Assembly: GCA_951406725.2 (NCBI GenBank)
Contig: OX597842.1
Coordinates: 17,050,001-17,114,000 of the forward strand
DNA length: 64,000 nucleotides
Reading direction: 5' to 3'
DNA from: Octopus vulgaris
Lineage: Eukaryota
A model generated the notes under the pieces. It was given only the letters and a program-made list of their open reading frames with translations, did not search any database and had not been told where the DNA came from. How positions within the stretch are numbered: position 1 is the first letter of the stretch; every line of letters starts with the position of its first letter. This document shows positions 741-64,000 of this stretch, one piece after another. Position numbers and translations under genes: made by a program.

Positions 741-2852
741 CAGGCGCATCAAAAGACTCAACAAAAAAATCAACCAATTAAAATATTCCCACACGCAACA
801 TCCACATTCAACAACAATGAAAAGACTAGAGCTGGAAAAACTTCATCTGCAGACTAACATGAAAACCTCCATTGAAAATCAAAGAGCTGTGGAGGAACAA
901 TGGGTAATCAAAATCATCAAACAGAACCCAAAAGTGTTCTATTCTTATGCAAATAAGCATAGAACCACTGTCTCACCTATTGGGCCATTGATTGATGAAA
1001 ACGGCATTCCCCAACACGATGCTAAAGAAATGGCAGAAATACTGCAGAAACAATATTGCTCTGTCTTCAGTGTTCCCATTGATATTGATGTGAGGGAAAC
1101 GAACGAAGCTGACTCCCAACACAAAATCGCAGACATAACCTTCACTGCCACCGACATCGTAGCAGCAATAAATGAGGTCAAACATTACTCTGCTGTTGGC
1201 CCTGATAGATTTCCCGCCAGTCTCCTGAAGGAATGTAGATATCAACTTGCAGTCCCTCTGACCAACCTCTGGAGAAACTCGTTAGACGCAGGTTATATAC
1301 CGAAAAAGTTTCTATCCCAGTCGGTCATCCCGGTTTTCAAACAGGGAAACAGATCCCTCGCAGTCAACTATCGCCCAATCTCACTCACCTCCCACATCAT
1401 TAAAGTGTTTGAAAGAGTGTTAAGATCAAGGATAGCTGACTTCCTGGAGACCCACAAACTCCTAAATTCAAATCAGCATGGCTTTCGCTGTGGCAGGGAC
1501 TGTCTAACACAGCTCTTACACCACATTGAAGATGTACTCAAAGCCTTGGGAACAGGTTCGAACTCTGACGTCATATACCTTGACTTCAGTAAAGCATTCG
1601 ACAGGGTAGACCATAACATCCTACTCTCAAAATTGGCAAATGTTGGAATCCGTGGAAAAGTTCTACACTGGATTCAGTATTTCCTAGCGAATAGAACACA
1701 ACATGTTGTAGTTGATGGAGTCCACTCAAACCCAGCAAAAGTCACCAGCGGTGTTCCCCAGGGAACTGTTTTGGGTCCGCTACTCTTCATAATTTATGTA
1801 AACGACCTTTCCAGTGTCGTACATCACTGCAAAGTGAAAATATTCGCTGATGACACTAAGCTCCAGCAAATCGTCAATGAAGAAGCAGACCGAACTCAAC
1901 TCCAGTCTGACCTATATGCTGTGAGTCAATGGGCAGACAGAAACAAAATGCAACTGAATGAGGGAAAATTTGAGCTGATGCATTTTGGAAGAAATTCCTC
2001 ACTAAAACAACCATACTCTCTTCCTTCAGGGGAACCGCTCACAGCCTCTAACAATATCAGAGACCTGGGTGTAATTGTTGATGACGATCTCAGTTGGAGT
2101 ACACACATCAACAAGAAGGTCGATACAGCTCGTAGGATGAGTTCCTGGATCTTAAGAACTTTCCGGTCCAGAGAACAAGGTGTCATCATACCACTTTTTT
2201 CATCCTTTGTACGGCCACACCTTGAATACTGCTGCCCACTGTGGTCTCCTCACACAAGACAAAACATCTCAAGAATTGAGTCACCCCAGAGGGCTCTCAC
2301 TAAACAAATTGAAGGCATGGCTGCTCTCGACTATTGGGATCGTCTTAAAGCCTTGAAACTTTACTCCCTCCAGCGTCGCCGTGAGCGGTACATCATTTGT
2401 ACGATGTGGAAAATATACCGCCAACTTTGCCCAAACGACCTAAACATTAGCTTCAAGGTTCATCCGAGACTTGGACCACGGGCTATACGTCACCTGCCAA
2501 ATTCAATATCACAACATACATGTACACTGCAACATAATTTCTTTTCCTCAACAGGCCCTGCCCTATTTAACATTGTCCCGAGGGAGATCAAAGAGGAAAA
2601 GGATCCCAACAACTTCAAACAGAGTCTGGATAGATTCCTTCAAAGAATACCAGATAAGCCACCCATAATTGGATACAACTCACCCAACAAGAACTCACTA
2701 CTTGAACAAAACTGGATACAACTCACCCAACAAGAACTCACTACTTGAACAAAACTTGACTTAAACAGGATTCGAATAATCCTATCAGGTGGTGCTATTA
2801 AGTTAGACATGGCCTGGACCAATCTCTGGTCGAAACATATCTAAGTCTAAGT
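741..2852 (+). mobile_element. 5'-truncated CR1-type LINE inserted in a (TA)n tract
   Basis: RT ORF, short 3' UTR and (CTAAGT)2 tail; the TA-rich flanks rejoin the tandem-unit sequence. Confidence 0.93.
742..2748 (+). CDS. CR1-type ORF2 fragment: RT and C-terminal domain, no endonuclease
   Basis: Motifs [56 protein letters not shown]. The first ~73 aa of ORF 523..2748 are translated microsatellite. A 43-bp tandem duplication lies at 2670-2755. Confidence 0.92.
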
Positions 2853-17566: not shown

Positions 17567-19617
17567 TATTTCAAAACATTTGCTATAAAGGCAGTACACA
17601 GATTAAGTTAGCTTTGCGGGCTGGACGAGGACATTAATGAAGTGAATGATAATGAAAGACAGATGATAAGGATGGGAGAAGACAAAAAGCGCCCGCCGAC
17701 TTTCGCTTCTCTAAAACATTGTTCTTTTTAAAGATAAACACAAAACGAGGTATTAAACCTCTTACAATTTTTCCAATTTTTGGACTTAGCAGTCCATTAT
17801 TAATACAAATGCAAGACGAGGTATTAAACCTCTTTCAACTTTTCAATTTTTAGACTTAGAAGTCCATTATTAATACTAACAGTTCAATAATTACATATCG
17901 TCCTCGAAATAGCTTGTGCCCGCGCCCTCCACCATCAAACACGCCTCCCTCAGAACGTAATCAAGTTCCGAGTTCGCGTCGCCCGGGACCAAGCTATAAT
18001 CTTCATTGAGCTCCTTTAGCCCAAGCGTCACGTCGAACGCCACGGCCTCCACAGCTATCTGCGGAGGCCATTCGGGGTCCTGTGTGAAGGCTAAAGGTGC
18101 TCCCTTGTGGTACTCTTCCATCATTTTTTTTTTCAATTTCTCCTCCTCTATAGAAGAGGACCAATACGTTCAGTTCTTTCGTTGGCGGCACAGTTCCCGC
18201 CAACGTCTGCGGCTCATGGATATCAGCCGCCCGACCTCTCTTTCTTTTTCTCCTCCTTCTTTTTGGGGAGACTGCTGACCCAGGGGACTCCGTCACCAGA
18301 CACGGGGGATCGCTATCCCCCTCCGCCACCTGAGTGTTCTTTGGCGAGCAACCATTGTTGCTCACCTGTCTCTTTCTTTTCGTGGAGGCAACCTCCTCCA
18401 CGACTTCCACCGTCTCCCCCTCCAATGAGGGGGCGGCGGGCGCCTTTTCCCCTTCATGCTCCGGGGCACCACCACGGCCCCCAGGACAATTCCTCTTGAT
18501 ATGTCCGGGCTTCAGGCACAGGTGACACTTGGGGGGGGCGTCCCTCGAGTATCACCGAGTACCTGTGCCCAGCCATTCTCAGGAAGTCCGGGAATTTCAT
18601 TTCTCCCACGGCCACCGGTGTCCACAGGGTCAAAGTTGCCTTTGACCCCTCCCAGGCGACCGCGGGAGCCATTTTCACACTCAGTAGCCTGGGTCCGCTA
18701 TCCCCCAGGCCTCGCCGGATGGTCTTCTCGATCCATTCCGCCTCCGTGCCCGGGGGCAGCCCACAAACCCAGGTTCTTTTTACTTTTCTGCCACAATACG
18801 AGGGGAGGAACAAAATTTCCTCTCCCTCCAGTGGCTCGCTAGCAAATCTGCTAGCTTCCTCGGGGGTACCAAACAGCAACCACACCGTTGCAAATTTAGT
18901 CCCCCGAGAAATAAACTTTATCGTTAGTAGGTGGTCCCCCAACTCTTTCTCTATGGTGCTCCTGTCGAAGAGGGCGATAGCTCCACGCGACCTAGAATAG
19001 GTTCGTAGGACCACCGTCCTCTTCTCAAGACTTTCAATCCACTGCTTGGGTGGGACAACCTCCCATTCCAAAGCAGTGGTTTCTTTTGTTGCCATGATTT
19101 TGAAAAAAGTTCAACTAAAAGTTCAAAGTCCAATAAGAAAAAAACACAATGACAGAACAGAAAGACAGAGCAGAGAAAATGACGAAGGAAGACAGTTCAA
19201 ATAATGGCAACACAGTTCTGCAACTGGGAATCCTCACGAAACAGGGTACTCCTAGTTGCAGCACACTTGGTTCTCCGTGGTAAATCCAAGCACAATTGGT
19301 TCTCCGTGGTAAATCCAAGCGAACAAATTAATTTTTGAGGAGGGGCTATGCCTCCTTAAAATACACAATTCTCACTAAAAGGTGAGACAATAAATACGCC
19401 AACAGGCAGAACAAATACATCCGAAGCAAAGTGAAGCTTATTACTCGCAGAAAAGTGTTAACACTAATTAATATTAATGCCAAAAAAGTATTAACGGCAA
19501 GCAATAAACCTCACTATGCTTCCAAAAATATCCAAAATGTCCTACCTGTTGCAGTAAAATGTTCAATAATTCACGTTAACACGTGACATTTGCAGGAGCG
19601 AAAAAAAACGCGTCCGC
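17567..19617 (-). mobile_element. ORF1-only non-autonomous retroelement (HAL1/Tx1-like), copy A, inserted in a SINE head
   Basis: 18-bp TSD with 2 mismatches (17549-17566 / 19618-19635); single gag-like ORF; ends at AATAAA; homologous to 45744-47993. Confidence 0.85.
17891..19095 (-). pseudogene. ORF1/gag-like protein (~400 aa) with CX2CX4HX4C knuckle and acidic C-terminal domain; two homopolymer frameshifts
   Basis: ORFs 18454..19095, 18003..18425 and 17891..18136 join if the G8 run (18531-18538) and T-run (~18125-18133) are corrected; this restores EGRPPKCHLCLKPGHIKRNCP. Confidence 0.82.
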
Positions 19618-19653
19618 TTGGTGAGAAAGCTACTTACCACACAGCCACTCCTT
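19618..19653 (-). mobile_element. Displaced 5' head (A box) of the interrupted SINE
   Basis: Reverse complement AGGAGTGGCTGTGTGGTAAGTAGCTTTCTCACCAA. Confidence 0.88.
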
Positions 19654-35441: not shown

Positions 35442-38309
35442 TTATGTAAAGAGTTCAGGCCACTTGAGGTCCAGGGAGGCTTTGAACAAAGCGGTCGTCG
35501 GCATCTTCACCATCTCGTCTGGCAGCTTGTTCCACGGATCCGCAACCCGGACGGAGAAAGCTCCTCTTCTTCGATTGGGATTAAATCGTCGCAGGTAGAG
35601 CTTTTCGGAATGACCCCGCAGCCGACGCTCTGGAGCAGGAGTGAAGAACAGCTCTTTCGAGAGGTTACACTTTCCGCTTATGATGTTGTGGGCGAGAATG
35701 AGATCACCACGGCGGCGGCGTTTTTCAAGAGAATAAAGGTCGAGTGTCCTCAGCCTTTCTTCGTAGGACAAATTTTTGAGACCATGAACCATGCGGGTAG
35801 CCAGCTTCTGGACTCTTTCGAGATGCTGTATGTCTTTGAGGAGATAAGGAGAAGAGGCATGAATCCCATACTCCAATATGGGTCTCACCAGCGTGACATA
35901 GAGTGGTAGGAATATGGCTGCTGTGAGCATTCCGAATGACCGTCAAATCAAGAACAGAATTCCGCGTGCTTTGTTGGCAGCATGGACGCACTGGGCCGAA
36001 GGCGAAAAGGAGGAATCTACCAAGATACCCAGGTCCTTTACCTGATCGGTCCTCTCCAGCAGCAGACGACCCGGCTCGAAATCAAGTTGAGTTGCTGGAG
36101 TAGAGCCGATAGGCAGATGACAGCACTTTGACACGTTCAGACGCAGGTCGCAATCGTTAGACCACTTCCAAATTTGGTGGAGGCATCGACGAAGATCCTC
36201 TATATTACCGCGAGGAGCGACCAGTTTGATATCGTCGGCAAATAGAAGGGTGTGTTGCGTGAGGTCGTCGAGCAAGTCATTTATGAAGACTAAGAACAAC
36301 AAGGGCCCAAGCACTGAACCTTGAGGCACGCCACTGCTCGCACTGGAGACGTCGGACCGCGAACCATTAACTTGGACTTGGAAGGAGCGATCTGAGAGGA
36401 AGGCACCAACCCATCGTACAATATCCGGATGGAAACTATATGCTTGAAGCTTGACAAGTAATAGGCTGTGGTTTACCGAGTCAAAAGCTTTGGCAAAGTC
36501 CAATAAAACGATGTCAACAGCATCACTATCATCGAGGATGCGCGTCACCAATTCTTCCATTACTAGAAAGTTGGTCAAGCATGATCTCTTCGGCACGAAG
36601 CCGTGTTGGGAATCAGAGATAGAGGCTGTGTTTAGGAGGTGGAGCGTCATACTTTTCTTAAGGATGGTTTCGAACATCTTGCTGATTATTGATGTAAGGG
36701 AAACCGGTCGGTAGTTAAGCGGGTCTTCGCGGCTCTCTTTCTTGAAAATTGGGCAGATTATCGCTGTTCTCCAGTCTGCAGGTATAACACCCGTCGCCAA
36801 TGACATATTGAATAGTCGTGTTAAGGGCTCGCAGATGACCGGAGCCAACGCTTTGATAACCCGTGGGTGTATGCCGTCAGGGCCGTGACCCTTGTTGACA
36901 TCGAGGCCTTGAATAACACGTTTGACTTCGTCCCGCGTGTTGACCAATCGAAGCATTGGAGGTACCGATCTATCAAATGGAGGGGGTTCACGACCATCAT
37001 CTTGTTTGAAAATAGTTGAAAAAGCCTCGGCAAATAATTGACTCTGTTGATAAGGGTCCTCAATCGATACGCCTGTTGAGTCTACCAACGTTGCAATCTG
37101 GTTGTTCAAGCGGGAATTCCGCTGGACATGGGCAAAGAAGGTTTTTGGATTGCTACTGGCATTTGCCGCGATTTTGTATTCATAACTGAAGCGTTCTTTC
37201 TTTTCAATTTTCACGGCTCGGTCTCGTTGAGTTTTGTACACCTCAAAAGCTGCAGTCGAATCCAGATTTTTGAATTCAGCCCAAGCAATATCTCTGAGTC
37301 GACGTTCTCGTTTAACCTTCTTCGTCACCCAGGGCTTGTGTTTCTTCCTCTTGGGAAGCCCAACGGGAACTGCCTGGTCAGTCAAACAGATTACATATGC
37401 TTTGAGGGATGACCATAGTTCGTCAACTGAGGACAACGTCATCAGGGATCGCCAGTCCAGAAGCGCGGAAGCCTCGGTTAGAATTTCAAGATTAATTGCA
37501 GAGAAGACTCTACGTGGCAGCGAAGTAGTCGTGGGCGTAGAAAAAGTTGTGTGCATGACGAACTTCAGGACCGCATGATCACTCTTGGCAAGAGGGGCGC
37601 ACACAGATACGTCTGACACTGATCTTGGATAGCGGGAGAATACCAGATCTAGCATAGATGGCTGCTGCCCAGACCGATGCCTTGTCGGATATTCAACATG
37701 TTGCGATAGAAAACAATCTTCAGCCACGTCAAGAAGGGCCTGGCCGAACCGGGAAGATATTGTACAAATTGATGCGGGCCAATCGATCGTGGGAGCGTTG
37801 AAGTCTCCTAGTACCAAACAGTCATGCGAAGCTGAAACGAATCTTATCGCTTCGAGTAAATGAGCATCGTCCTGGGGGTCGGCAAGAGGCGGCCTGTAGA
37901 CAGCCAACACGGGCAGGCAAAACTCAGATAGGCTCAGCTTGCAATAGACGGCATCGAATTTTGTTGTAGGTTGAGCATTAGTGGGTAGAATACCGCTGGA
38001 CGGTTTGTGCTCAGACTTAACATACACAGCAACACCTCCACATCTGAAAAGGATGTAGCCCTGCAGGTGGATTTCTGAGTCCTTTACTGCTGGAGTCAGC
38101 CAAGTCTCGGTGATAGCTATCACATCAGGGGAGTCACGTATGGCCAGTGTAAATAGTTCACTGAACTTTGGGAATAAGGAGCACAAGTTGGTGTAGACGA
38201 TGCTGAGCTGTGAAGTCTGATGGACGGGAGTTGGGGAACAAGCAGAATAAGGGGCATCAGAGATAGCATCGTTGACGGGGGTATCAACTTCACTTCGATT
38301 TGCCCTCAC
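35442..38309 (-). pseudogene. LINE ORF2 (APE endonuclease + RT) with one in-frame TGA at 35943-35945
   Basis: ITETWL, VYRPP, LGDFN, LDLVF..SDH, NYRPVSLTS, DFAKAFD, GVPQGSVLGP, FADD; ORFs 35943..38309 and 35442..35930 are in frame (FLI*RSFGML). Confidence 0.92.
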
Positions 38310-45706: not shown

Positions 45707-45743
45707 GGCGTAGGAGTTGCTGTGTGGTAAGTAGCTTGCTAAC
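45707..45743 (+). mobile_element. 5' head (A box) of the interrupted tRNA-derived SINE
   Basis: GGCGTAGGAGTTGCTGTGTGGTAAGTAGCTTGCTAAC. Confidence 0.88.
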
Positions 45744-47993
45744 GCACATGCGCAGTTAGTCAGTTGCTTCCTGTTCAGCCAGAGTGGACGCGAGTCAACC
45801 AGCCCCGTCCAATTAAAGAAAAAAGACCAAAAACGGAAAGTTGTCGAGGTAAGTGATTTTGTTTATTGTGAGTTGGGCATAATTTATTGCGTGCCAATTA
45901 TTATTTCAGTAAGTTGTGTCCAACTCTGAGACAATCTCGCCTGCTCTCGGCGGCTGCCGTTTTTGTGTTCATTGAAAAAAAAAGAAAAAACAGTGGAGGG
46001 GCGTATCCTCGAAATTCAATACAGTTACTGTTAAAATTACCGTTGGCGGTAGCCAGTGCTGTGTTTGGGTTTGTTGAATTTATTCCCTTGTCAGAGTACT
46101 TCGCAAGAAAATTATAAAAATAAGCCACTATTGGATTACCTTTCGGACCCATTTTTGTGGAGGTTGTGTTGCAGTTGCGGCGTTCCAGGTTCAACCCAGG
46201 CCGGGAGTACCGCAAGGCCAGAATATTTTTGCTGTGTTTTTTCTGTTTATTAACTTTCTTTTGAACTTCATTTAACCCCCCTTTTGTTTTTTTTCCTTAT
46301 TGCGACTTTCCGTTGATTTCTTCCCTTCTGTTGTGCTTTCTCCCTTTTGTTTTTTTCAAAAATCTATCAAATTTTATTTGGACTTTTGAACTTTTTTCTT
46401 CCTGCTTTTTGAGTTTAATTTGAATATATTTAAAAAAAACATGGCAATGAAAAATAACAAAATTTTGGAGTGGGAAATCATACCACCTAAAAAGTGGTTA
46501 AAAGACCGTGAAGATAGGACGGTGGTGTTGAGAACCTACTCCAAGGCACTCGACACCATCGCCCTATTCGAAAAGACGGCAATTGAGGAGGAGTTGGAAG
46601 AGTATTTGCCAACAATTAAATTCATTTCCAGGGGTGTCAAATATGCAACGGTGTGGTTGCTATTTGACACCCCTGAAGAGGCTTGCAAATTTGCTAGCAA
46701 ACCCCTGGAGGGTAAGGAAATCTTATTCCTGCCCACGTACAAAAAAAGAAATTGATGAAAGCTTGGATTTGCGGACTGCCACCCGACATAGAACCCGAGT
46801 GGATAGAGGAGACTATCCGCCGGGGTCTGGGTGACAGCGAAACTAAGCTCCTCAATGTAAAAGTTCTTCCTGCGGCTGCTTGGGTTGGGTCAAAAGCAAT
46901 TTTGACCCTGTGGACCCAATCAGCCAATCTGGTTCTTCCAGATTTTTTGAAAATGGCCGGGTGCAGGTACCCGGTGATGCTTGAGGGTCGCCCCCCTAAG
47001 TGTCATCGGTGCTTGGAGTCCGGCCACATAAAGAAGAACTGTCCTCGGGGACAAAATAGGATCCCGGAACAGTTAAGTAAAACCCCTCTAGAAGAGGGAA
47101 CGATAACGGCCGAGAAAGCAGAGGACTCCTCAAACAGAGGCCGAAAGAGGAAGGTGAGCAACAATGGGTGCTCACCAAAGGATAATAGGGATGAGGAGAG
47201 GAAGGCGAATCTTCCAGCCACGGAGGAGACGCACCCTCCCTCAGTTGAAAAGGGGAAAAAAAGAGAAAGAGGAAGAAAAACGGGACGTTACCGGCTGTCA
47301 GTGTAGCACCGGAATGTCCAGGAACTACGTCGGTTGGGGTTGTGCCACCGACAAGAGAAGGAATACCGTTGGCGGGAACTGTGCCGCCAACGAAAGAACT
47401 GAACGTATTGGTCCTCTTCTATAGAGGAGGAGAAATTGAAAAAGTGATGGAAGAGCACTACAAGGGAGCACCTTTAGCCTTCACACAGGACCCCGAATGG
47501 CCTCCGCAGGTAGCTGTGGAGGCCGTGGCGTTCGACGTCACGCTTGGGCTAAAGGAGCTCAATGAAGATTATAACTTGGTCCCGGGCGACGCGAACTCGG
47601 AACTTGATTACGTTCTGAGGGAGGCGTGGTTGATGGTGGAGGGCGCGGGCACAAGCTATTTCGAGGACGATATGTAATTATTGAACTGTTATTATTAGTA
47701 ATGGACTCAAGTCCAAAAATTGAAAAATTGTAAGAGGATTAATACCTCATTTTGTATTAATAATGGACTGCTAAGTCCAAAAATTGGAAAAATTGTAAGA
47801 GGTTTAATACCTCGTTTTGTGTTTATCTTTAAAAAGAACAATGTTTTAGAGAAGCGAAAGTCGGCGGGCGCTTTTTATCTTCTCCCATCCTTATCATCTT
47901 TCTTTCATTATCATTCACCTCATTAATGTCCTCGTCCAGCCCGCAAAGCTAACTTAATCTGTGTACTGCCTTTATGGCAAATGTTTTGAAATA
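45744..47993 (+). mobile_element. ORF1-only non-autonomous retroelement (HAL1/Tx1-like), copy B, inserted in a SINE head
   Basis: 15-bp TSD with 1 mismatch (45729-45743 / 47994-48008); single gag-like ORF; 3' end TGAAATAAA identical to copy A. Confidence 0.85.
46441..47677 (+). pseudogene. ORF1/gag-like protein (~410 aa) with CCHC zinc knuckle, frameshifted
   Basis: ORFs 46420..46755, 46752..47306 and 47342..47677 are colinear with copy A; EGRPPKCHRCLESGHIKKNCP. Confidence 0.82.
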
Positions 47994-48151
47994 AAGTAGC
48001 TTGCTTACCAACCTCATGGTTCCGGGTTCAATCCCACTGCGTGACACCTTGGGCAAGTGTCTTCTGCTATACCTCGGGCCAACTATAGCCTTGTGAGTGG
48101 ATTTGGTAGACGGAAACTGAAAGAATCCCTTCGTGTATATGTATATATATA

Positions 48152-48207
<56 letters not shown>

Positions 48208-48430
48208 TGTGTGTGTATTGTGTGTCTATGTTTGTCCTCCCAACATCGCTTGACAACCGATGCTGGTGTGTTTACATCTCCGAAACATAGTGGTTCGGCA
48301 AAAGAGACCGATAGAACAAGTACTAGGCTTACAAAGAATTAGTCCTGGGTCGATTTGCTCGGGTAAAGCCGGTGCTCCAGCATGGCCGCAGTCAAATGAC
48401 TGAAACAAATAAAAGAGTAAAAGAGTAAAA
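47994..48430 (+). mobile_element. Remainder of the interrupted SINE (B box, body, (TG)n, 3' tail)
   Basis: catggttccgggttcaatcccactgcgtg...ggatttggtagacggaaactgaaag; tail aaagagtaaaagagtaaaag. Confidence 0.9.
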
Positions 48431-48718
48431 GAAAGACTTTTCTGATTTCTCTCAGAAAGGTCTCAAGCGACTTAGTCTGTTCATTTCATCTTAAATCTCC
48501 AAACGGATGTTTCTCTTGCTTTCACTTTCACTTTGTACATATATATATATATATATATAACTGTATATATGTATATATGTATATAACTATATATATACAT
48601 ATATGTATATAAATGTATATAAATGTATATATATGTATATAAATGTATATAAATGTGTATATATAGAGATTCACGTATATAGATGTATATATATATATAT
48701 ATATGTGGGTGGGTGTAT

Positions 48719-62762: not shown

Positions 62763-63700
62763 GCTGTGAGAAATCCTTTACTCGGAAATCAAATCTTGTT
62801 ATTCACAAAAGACCTCACACACTAGAACGCCTTTGACTTTTTGAAGTTTGTGGGAAATACTTTATTTCTGATGATAATTTAAACAAACGAATCCATGTTT
62901 AACAGATGTTAATTTATGTTTAATTTATGTTAGTTTAAGTTTAATAAATGTTAATTTATGCTCCAAACACCAGCTGAATAGGGACAAAGATATTTTACTA
63001 AATGATTCCTTATTTTCAAAATTAATTGAAACAAAGACAGTGTTCATCAACAGAATATGGTAATGAAAGGGTTAAAGTGATCTAAATGAAAACATTTCCT
63101 TAAAATTTCATAATATTTTATGTTCGAAACATCAACTTCATAATGAAAAAAGTTATTTTATTCAAATCTTTAATATTTTCAAAATTAATTGAAAGAAAGG
63201 GCAACAGAAATATGGTAAGAAAAGGGTTCAAAAATAAACCTTCCATCAAAATTTCAAGTTAGTTTGTTGAGAAAACGAGAGAGTGAAGGAGGAAAGTGGA
63301 AGGTAAAAGGGTCCTTCATCAGAAAATGTTTCAATTTAAAAGCATCTCTCTGATGTGTCTTTGTCTGTGAATGACTAAAGTACTGATTTCATGAATGATT
63401 TCCTGCAAATCTCACAGCAAAATGTTGGAAATACTTTATTTCTGATGGAAATTTAAACAGACACAAACGAATCTACACTGGCTAAAAATCCTATCCGTGT
63501 CAGACATGTGGGAAGTGATTCTCGGCTAAATCTCATTTGGTTATTCATATCCGAAGTCAGACACGAGAAAACCCATATCTTTGTGACGTATGTAGGAAAT
63601 CGTTGGTTTCTGTCAGTTACTTAAACAGACACAAATTGATACACGCCGGAGAAAAATCATTTCGTTGTGAAATTTGCGGTAAATCTTTTCTTGACAAGTC
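62762..63700 (+). pseudogene. Degenerate C2H2 zinc-finger array (segments 62762-62900 and 63415-63700) interrupted by repeats
   Basis: CEKSFTRKSNLVIHKRPHT; YPCQTCGK*FSAKSHLVIHIR; CDVCRKS..HKLIHAGEKSFRCEICGKSF, with stops and a frameshift. Confidence 0.8.
62945..63270 (+). repeat. Two tandem copies of an AT-rich repeat; the first ends AAAGGGTTAA (piggyBac-like terminus)
   Basis: ttttcaaaattaattgaaa...aatatggtaa..aaagggtt occurs twice. Confidence 0.5.
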
Positions 63701-63701
63701 A

Positions 63702-63860
63702 TAGGAGTGGCTGTGTGGTAAGTAGCTTGCTTGAACACTACAGCGTTCCAGGTTCAGTCCCACTGCGTGGAACCTTGGGCTGGTGTTTTTTACTATAGCC
63801 TCGGGCCGACCAGAGCCTTGTGAGTTGATTTGGTAGACGGAAACTGAAAGAAGCCCGTCT

Positions 63861-63908
<48 letters not shown>

Positions 63909-64000
63909 GACAGACAGAGAGAGAGAGATAGGTACAGGAGTGGCTGTGTGGTAAGTAGCTTGCTTACCAACCACAAGGTTCCAGCTTCATTCCCACTGCG
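63702..64000 (+). mobile_element. Two uninterrupted copies of the target SINE (63702-63860 and 63930 to window end)
   Basis: GGAGTGGCTGTGTGGTAAGTAGCTTGCTT(ACCAACCAC) runs straight into the B box, i.e. empty target sites. Confidence 0.9.

Follow-up and report, generated by a model that had tools for sequence, protein, structure and literature searches.

Copy B, a 2.26-kb insertion within a SINE of Octopus vulgaris, is a dead copy of an ORF1-only retroelement family. It very probably represents a decayed member of an old lineage of such elements, here called half-elements, that land at one fixed base of this SINE and are likely copied in trans by the ORF2 of a 5.45-kb autonomous LINE, the partner, which uses the same base. 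The system as a whole is real and well supported. It was found in a 64,000-nucleotide stretch of DNA (the window; contig OX597842.1, positions 17,050,001 to 17,114,000), to which the coordinates below refer.

Results

Structure of copy B and of its host SINE

Copy B occupies positions 45738–47993 on the forward strand, as do all of the parts described here, and the nearest copies that were fetched are 97.6% identical to it. It separates the A-box-like from the B-box-like motif of its host, as the preliminary description had recognized. Upstream lie the 5′ head of the SINE (45707–45728), with the A-box-like motif at 45718–45728, and the 5′ copy of the target duplication, AAGTAGCTT (45729–45737), a stretch of about 9–10 bp contributed by the host. 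The element itself opens with a mimic of the target, (G)CTAAC (45738–45743), which rebuilds the landing site; its 5′ base tracks the element type, and later elements stack here. There follow a 5′ UTR of type B1 (45744–46440), in place of which other copies join the same body to different 5′ UTRs, and ORF1 (46441–47677), predicted to encode two RRMs, a CCHC knuckle (from 47001), a basic disordered linker and a C-terminal domain of unassigned fold. The 3′ end contains an imperfect anti-target motif, AAGCTAACTT (47945–47955; the reverse complement of the target is AAGCTACTT), and a conserved 4-bp hairpin, TGCC-TTTAT-GGCA (47967–47979), that is common to the autonomous LINE. The terminal GAAATA and the AA of the target together form AATAAA (47988–47995), with no poly(A) tail. 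The 3′ copy of the duplication, again AAGTAGCTT as read from the sequence (47994–48002), leads into the remaining SINE (48003–48435), which carries the B-box-like GGTTCAATCCC at 48025–48035, a (TA)n/(TG)n middle and an AAGAGT-repeat tail that runs to about 48435.

Two frameshifts, near 46740 and 47250, break the ORF of about 410 aa. A single protein of this size had been ascribed to the element, and this holds for intact natural copies, which encode 414–416 aa, but copy B itself is non-coding. Similarity to ORF2 is absent inside copy B and inside copy A, the second such element of the window, in agreement with the earlier view that neither endonuclease nor RT is present. The 3′ UTR of both copies also contains an imperfect tandem duplication of about 65 nt (47693–47826 in copy B).

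Copy A (17567–19626, reverse strand) belongs to a second subfamily and is inserted at the identical SINE base; its ORF1 (19095–17891) is broken as well. Its 3′ junction, in another copy of the SINE, is the same as that of copy B, as had been noted. The two copies are mosaics of one another: their last ~630 nt, together with the SINE flank, are 94% identical, the N-terminal part of ORF1 is 70% identical and the 5′ UTRs cannot be aligned. Across the family, half-elements span 1.9–2.3 kb between SINE head and tail, and 2 of 40 sampled copies retain an open frame of at least 395 aa. Subfamilies swap 5′ UTRs, ORF1 bodies and tails (L077, L063, L242), and L077 has two 5′ UTRs in tandem. At L033 (the same place as L085), a mini-element of about 110 nt combines a B-type 5′ end with a 3′ tail, and its target is duplicated. 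At L235, a 1.49-kb ORF1-only element occupies the same SINE site with an ORF1 that falls outside the main half-element clade, and it is probably a second origin of an ORF1-only element at this site. A conserved splice donor in the 5′ UTR was considered and is not general, occurring in only 3–4 of 11 representative elements.

The host SINE measures about 400–450 bp including an internal microsatellite, is present in high copy number and has AAGAGT-repeat tails. It had been called tRNA-derived. The A- and B-box-like motifs that prompted this, seen by eye, are present, but its fold lacks a cloverleaf and neither ARAGORN nor Rfam returned a tRNA match, so the motifs are the only pointers to such an origin. 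Two SINE subtypes exist at the target, TAAC and TTAC. The idea that the SINE is itself a passenger of the same LINE was not supported: 30 uninterrupted copies (L132–L161) mostly follow ATA or (TA)n and other TA-rich flanks with no long duplication, and none of the 30 lies in the head of another copy, a sample that leaves room for a different, Tx1-tailed SINE. Near the end of the window, a C2H2 zinc-finger-like frame (63582–63700, forward strand) lies beside two tandem SINE copies (about 63700–64000).

The family occupies one site of the SINE

The last 30 nt of the element have 215 exact matches in the genome (G000) and the reversed 30-mer has none; thus, the 3′-end matches are not due to chance. 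All 215 ends are compatible with one SINE site, the next base being G in 214 and the remaining one being a SINE with a point change. The genome-wide tabulation of flanks therefore agrees with the site-specific insertion first proposed. The SINE body continues past the 3′ junction in 30 of 30 loci (the first 30 by position). Among 40 position-ordered copies read at both ends, 39 pass the SINE-body match and the fortieth has a degenerate version of it; the SINE head lies about 2 kb upstream in 36, and in the other 4 this place is taken by another element ending at a rebuilt site. The target site is an imperfect palindrome.

Exact searches of the same genome returned 53,949 uninterrupted 33-nt SINE sites and 472 filled junctions of any family, which puts occupancy at about 1% of intact sites. 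Of the filled junctions, the first 30 comprise 19 half-element tails, 10 tails of autonomous type and one too short to assign. Among about 70 junction-selected loci, roughly 15 (to which L080 can be added) lack a recognizable SINE head in the upstream DNA that was fetched; transport by the tail of the SINE itself could account for some of these.

The element supplies part of its own target

The 5′-side base in CT(A/T)AC tracks the 5′ UTR type of the element in 36 of 36 copies and is unlike the host base in 10 of them; the G that follows AAGTAGCTT is missing in 11 of 14 A-type copies. Because the 5′ base follows the element and not the host, the host gives only about 9–10 bp and the element supplies the rest, thereby rebuilding the site. 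The duplication of 15 bp given in the preliminary description must be shortened accordingly, the remainder being the element's own 5′ end. Its length is not sharp, since truncated copies retain 0–10 nt of target and L063 at least 11. The 3′ end calls for a similar adjustment. AATAAA does stand at the junction, as described, but its last two A's belong to the target, which begins with them: in sister LINEs the terminal sequence is GAAATA/AATAAAGAAATA, which implies that AATAAA is completed here by the target AA. HAL1 elements insert without a specific site and end in poly(A). By comparison, an extra A after AATAAA occurs at none of the 215 ends, so a poly(A) tail, which a strict HAL1 would have, is absent.

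The rebuilt target at the 5′ end allows later elements to stack there. One locus holds four elements head to tail, and another has a half-element followed by a full LINE and then a B-type element. Stacking affects 4 of 40 copies, above the background occupancy of about 1% (p 0.0004), a rough comparison in which the upstream element is of one and the same subfamily in three of the four. The family bears the marks of target-primed reverse transcription (TPRT), namely a fixed 3′ end, 5′ truncation and target duplication.

An autonomous LINE shares the site and the tail

The partner LINE, 5.45 kb long, ends at the same SINE junction and encodes a 467-aa ORF1 with a CCHC motif and an ORF2 in which Pfam identifies Exo_endo_phos, RVT_1 and zf-RVT. 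An intact ORF2 of 1133 aa is found at L234, and the best solved relative of this protein is human L1 ORF2p (E 1e-63). A search with the RT returned about 85 copies of at least 83% identity among the best 150 scored, several with ORF2-length open frames, and in each of 20 partner copies picked by RT similarity, the 3′ end abuts the SINE site or a rebuilt version of it. The genome thus contains the kind of autonomous APE-RT LINE, with the target and the tail of the half-elements, that the preliminary description had anticipated. The 30 ORF2 homologues that were matched include no named Tx1 reference, being unnamed or uninformative; the partner is an L1/Tx1-type LINE, with Tx1 as its probable clade. 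Fragments of other LINE RTs, about 25% identical to the partner ORF2, lie in the window at 958–2115 (forward strand) and 36261–37097 (reverse strand).

Sister LINEs with about 75% RT identity behave differently, none of 20 being at the SINE site. Seven of their ends abut (TC)n, seven are followed by sequence identical to the element's own 5′ end, several of these in tandem arrays, and six are elsewhere or unresolved. The (TC)n-microsatellite sister (for example, L278–L285) has several intact 1138-aa frames. The other (for example, L286–L295) forms 5.28-kb tandem arrays (C9, 59.21–59.25 Mb; C5, 29.18–29.20 Mb) in which the sequence past the 3′ end is its own 5′ end, which suggests that it inserts into itself or into a rebuilt site.

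At the DNA level, copy B and the partner match only over the last ~39 nt (79% identity), which contain the hairpin tail. Pairing is kept in 92.5% of 120 hairpin cells with 7 double changes, a result reached by 0 of 500 shuffles, although relatedness among the tails inflates the shuffle test. The 30 rows consist of 26 of the 28 dereplicated tails and 4 added by hand, and without the two of these that were chosen after variants had been seen, the double changes number 5. The shared site and the shared tail suggest that the partner mobilizes half-elements in trans.

We propose a sequence of events whose nick and copying steps are modeled on established TPRT. Half-element RNA would be packaged by its own ORF1 protein, and the partner ORF2 would recognize the hairpin-GAAATA tail, nick the bottom strand at TT|AC opposite GGT|AAG and prime reverse transcription there. 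Some 9 nt downstream the second strand would be cut, and the resemblance of the cDNA 5′ end to the target may help joining. Given the terminal AATAAA and the lack of an inserted poly(A), the RNA probably extends slightly past the element into the target downstream, and such read-through would account for a junction fixed to the base. In four presumed-RNA runs, represented by contigs only, parts of the element are covered and one contig crosses the 3′ junction, at a resolution from which strand, start, poly(A) site and level are not readable. The tail plus read-through folds no more stably than shuffled sequences (z −0.36).

The same machinery could be partly RNA-guided, with the 3′ UTR motif AGCTAC(TT) pairing with the top strand of the target or with read-through RNA and being needed for site choice. 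Of 28 dereplicated tails, 17 contain AGCTAC, which lies at about −45 in half-elements and about −80 in the partner, in differing flank contexts; the mean match to the target is 7.3 nt, as compared to 5.4 nt for shuffled targets (0 of 300), and the motif is missing from all 8 sister tails. The tails are related, however, so that these figures amount to only about two independent observations, and the motif is imperfect in the young subfamily of copy B. Moreover, the sister LINEs have no consistent match to their own targets (4–7 nt), and the part of PMC1950540 that deals with Tx1L places its specificity in the endonuclease. We therefore consider RNA guidance unlikely, though a serious contender. 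A more general rule, by which each tail would be the complement of its own target, was rejected, as it was not seen in the 8 sister tails.

A fuller scheme of self-renewing, RNA-assisted landing would join several of these elements. The RNA would start with a copy of the target and end by reading into it, while the internal anti-target motif would help in opening the site or in setting its register; an ORF1-only lineage, ancient and of other ancestry, would have taken the partner's tail and would supply the packaging protein, in a division of labor like that of HeT-A and TART; and each insertion would likely disable one SINE promoter and make a preferred next site. As a whole we regard this scheme as doubtful. 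Copying in trans by the partner ORF2 at a base that it also uses itself remains the reading that we favor.

Half-elements were inserted independently of the spread of the SINE

A fixed junction could also be inherited. If one or a few insert-bearing SINEs had been amplified as composites by the LINE partner of the SINE, the site would have been passed on and not targeted. The invariant 3′ junction is expected in that case, and the ~15 truncated loci with no SINE head fit it, as does a weak association between element type and host SINE subtype (14 of 22 as compared to 2 of 14, p 0.006), which may instead reflect timing or a preference for a matching 5′ end. Yet divergence among the host SINEs is nearly three times that among the inserts they carry: across 39 copies, mean divergence is 3.2% for the last 600 nt of the element and 8.6% for the SINE bodies, and 30 empty SINEs average 9.3%. 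The distance matrices of elements and host SINEs are uncorrelated (Mantel rho 0.03, p 0.35, n=39). Elements younger than their hosts and the lack of co-phylogeny indicate independent insertions. Consistently, the junction is common to 28 distinct tails (clustered at 85%) and to the autonomous LINE, and different elements are stacked at the site. Eleven 5′-truncated copies adjoin the SINE head at variable points, with 0–10 nt of target kept or a deletion into the head, and at L063 a change private to that SINE stands in duplicate on either side of the element. For the main family, amplification as composites is thus largely refuted, and we hold it to be highly improbable.

ORF1 defines a lineage of its own

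Targeted insertion does not by itself separate a propagating family from repeated derivatives of a LINE, and here ORF1 is informative. Residues 1–204 are modeled with high confidence (pLDDT 92) as two RRM-type domains. The best structural match of this model is the La protein (Z 9.7, rmsd 2.8 over 82 residues), and many RRMs match at Z 7–8. Pfam finds a CCHC knuckle alone, after the RRMs, and in copy B this falls below the cut-off. The C-terminal domain was modeled poorly from six sequences (pLDDT 53). As a lead only, Atlas clusters of the ZCCHC3-type RBD appear at 0.89–0.90 for ORF1; solved ORF1 structures gave no sequence match to the half-element protein. The half-element ORFs are present in databases as uncharacterized octopus proteins, and the closest hits among named proteins come from Octopus.

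Half-element ORF1 is 29% identical to partner ORF1 over 196 aa (E 5e-23) and 22–29% identical to the ORF1s of sister LINEs. In a tree of 33 rows, a single clade (100/99) with a long stem unites 12 half-element ORF1s with an O. sinensis protein; this clade does not join partner ORF1, in a tree for which the tool warns of long-branch joins. Of the 37 pairs used for dN/dS, 33 lie between subfamilies, and 32 of these give ratios of 0.09–0.24 at dS of about 1–3, one being saturated; windows below 40% identity to the reference were left out, which lowers dN somewhat. Half-element ORF1 is under purifying selection. A clade of its own, 29% identity and purifying selection together show that the half-elements are not a one-off deletion of the partner, and the absence of an ORF2 remnant agrees; the proposal of a separate non-autonomous family is thereby sustained. 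It is very improbable that the ~2-kb elements arose over and over from an autonomous LINE by internal deletion, without propagating as a lineage, for although such deletions do occur (the 110-nt mini-element at L033) and a parent nearer than those sampled could exist, given that genome searches score only the best candidates, the ORF1s are only 27–29% identical to partner and sister ORF1s, no ORF2 remnant is present, at least 215 ends are near-identical, and the ORF1-only subfamilies stand at dS of about 1–2 with dN/dS near 0.15.

Discussion

The data add a SINE to the target list of sequence-specific LINEs and imply that protein-coding half-LINEs can take over the site specificity of a partner. 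The SINE may benefit its occupants as a safe landing site. Sister endonucleases from LINEs with about 75% RT identity, three targets and many intact ORF2s provide a natural series for the evolution of APE specificity, which also bears on whether RNA-target pairing contributes, and the system opens the question of why non-autonomous elements retain ORF1 for so long. As the individual parts have precedents, we view the system as a striking new combination; it would amount to a new principle only if the RNA-pairing step held.

In a full-text literature search that covered mostly non-subscription papers, outside Repbase and Dfam, the text available to us described neither a LINE nor a half-LINE that targets a SINE in cephalopods, nor a SINE target with ORF1-only passengers. 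In an octopus repeat annotation from 2026, 13 L1-Tx1 families with recent activity are listed, and neither "target" nor "nested" occurs as a word in its available text (PMC13282606); the available text of two other octopus papers does not mention Tx1 (PMC9115989, PMC12988792).

Tx1 LINEs that target transposons are known, as in Xenopus Tx1L, which inserts into Tx1D, and in Tx1-8_Crp, Tx1-4_AMi and Tx1-9_AMi (PMC4494074). Crocodilian Tx1-Mar, with its SINEU passengers in Mariner-N4_AMi, is a further example (PMC4494074; for passenger-carrying, transposon-targeting Tx1 LINEs, see also PMC4640811). As far as these systems are described there, the octopus system resembles them in its APE-RT LINE, multicopy transposon target and non-autonomous passengers with the same target. 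It differs in that the target is a SINE head and not a DNA or LTR transposon, in that the passengers are protein-coding half-LINEs, unlike SINEU, and in a specificity of about 100% in our samples as compared to 13–90% for SINEU families (PMC4494074). The octopus sister family with a (TC)n target is like Kibi of fish, in the portion of its description that was available. Stem-loop tails, as found here, mark stringent LINEs in the sections consulted of PMC3747384. Dada DNA transposons similarly occupy a fixed position, near the A box of tRNA-like sequence, but on the available account they are DNA transposons that make 6-bp duplications in genuine tRNA genes, and their mechanism is unrelated to that of the half-LINE (PMC8869645).

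Non-autonomous LINEs that have an ORF1 include HAL1 (L1), Ag-Sponge (CR1) and HeT-A (Jockey), according to the relevant parts of PMC5786205 and PMC5753468. Like these elements, as portrayed there, half-elements encode only an ORF1 protein, keep their 5′ and 3′ cis ends and would obtain RT from another element. They are unlike them in using one base of a dispersed SINE, in lacking poly(A) and in having an ORF1 with two predicted RRMs and a CCHC knuckle. There is a further likeness to HeT-A with TART/TAHRE at Drosophila telomeres, on the available description (PMC5537684): in both cases an ORF1-only element under purifying selection is restricted in site and lies in head-to-tail arrays, mixed with an autonomous partner that has a different ORF1. 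In contrast to HeT-A, the half-elements belong to the L1 group and not to Jockey, have no known host function and are targeted to internal SINE DNA, with a short duplication, and not to a chromosome end (PMC5537684).
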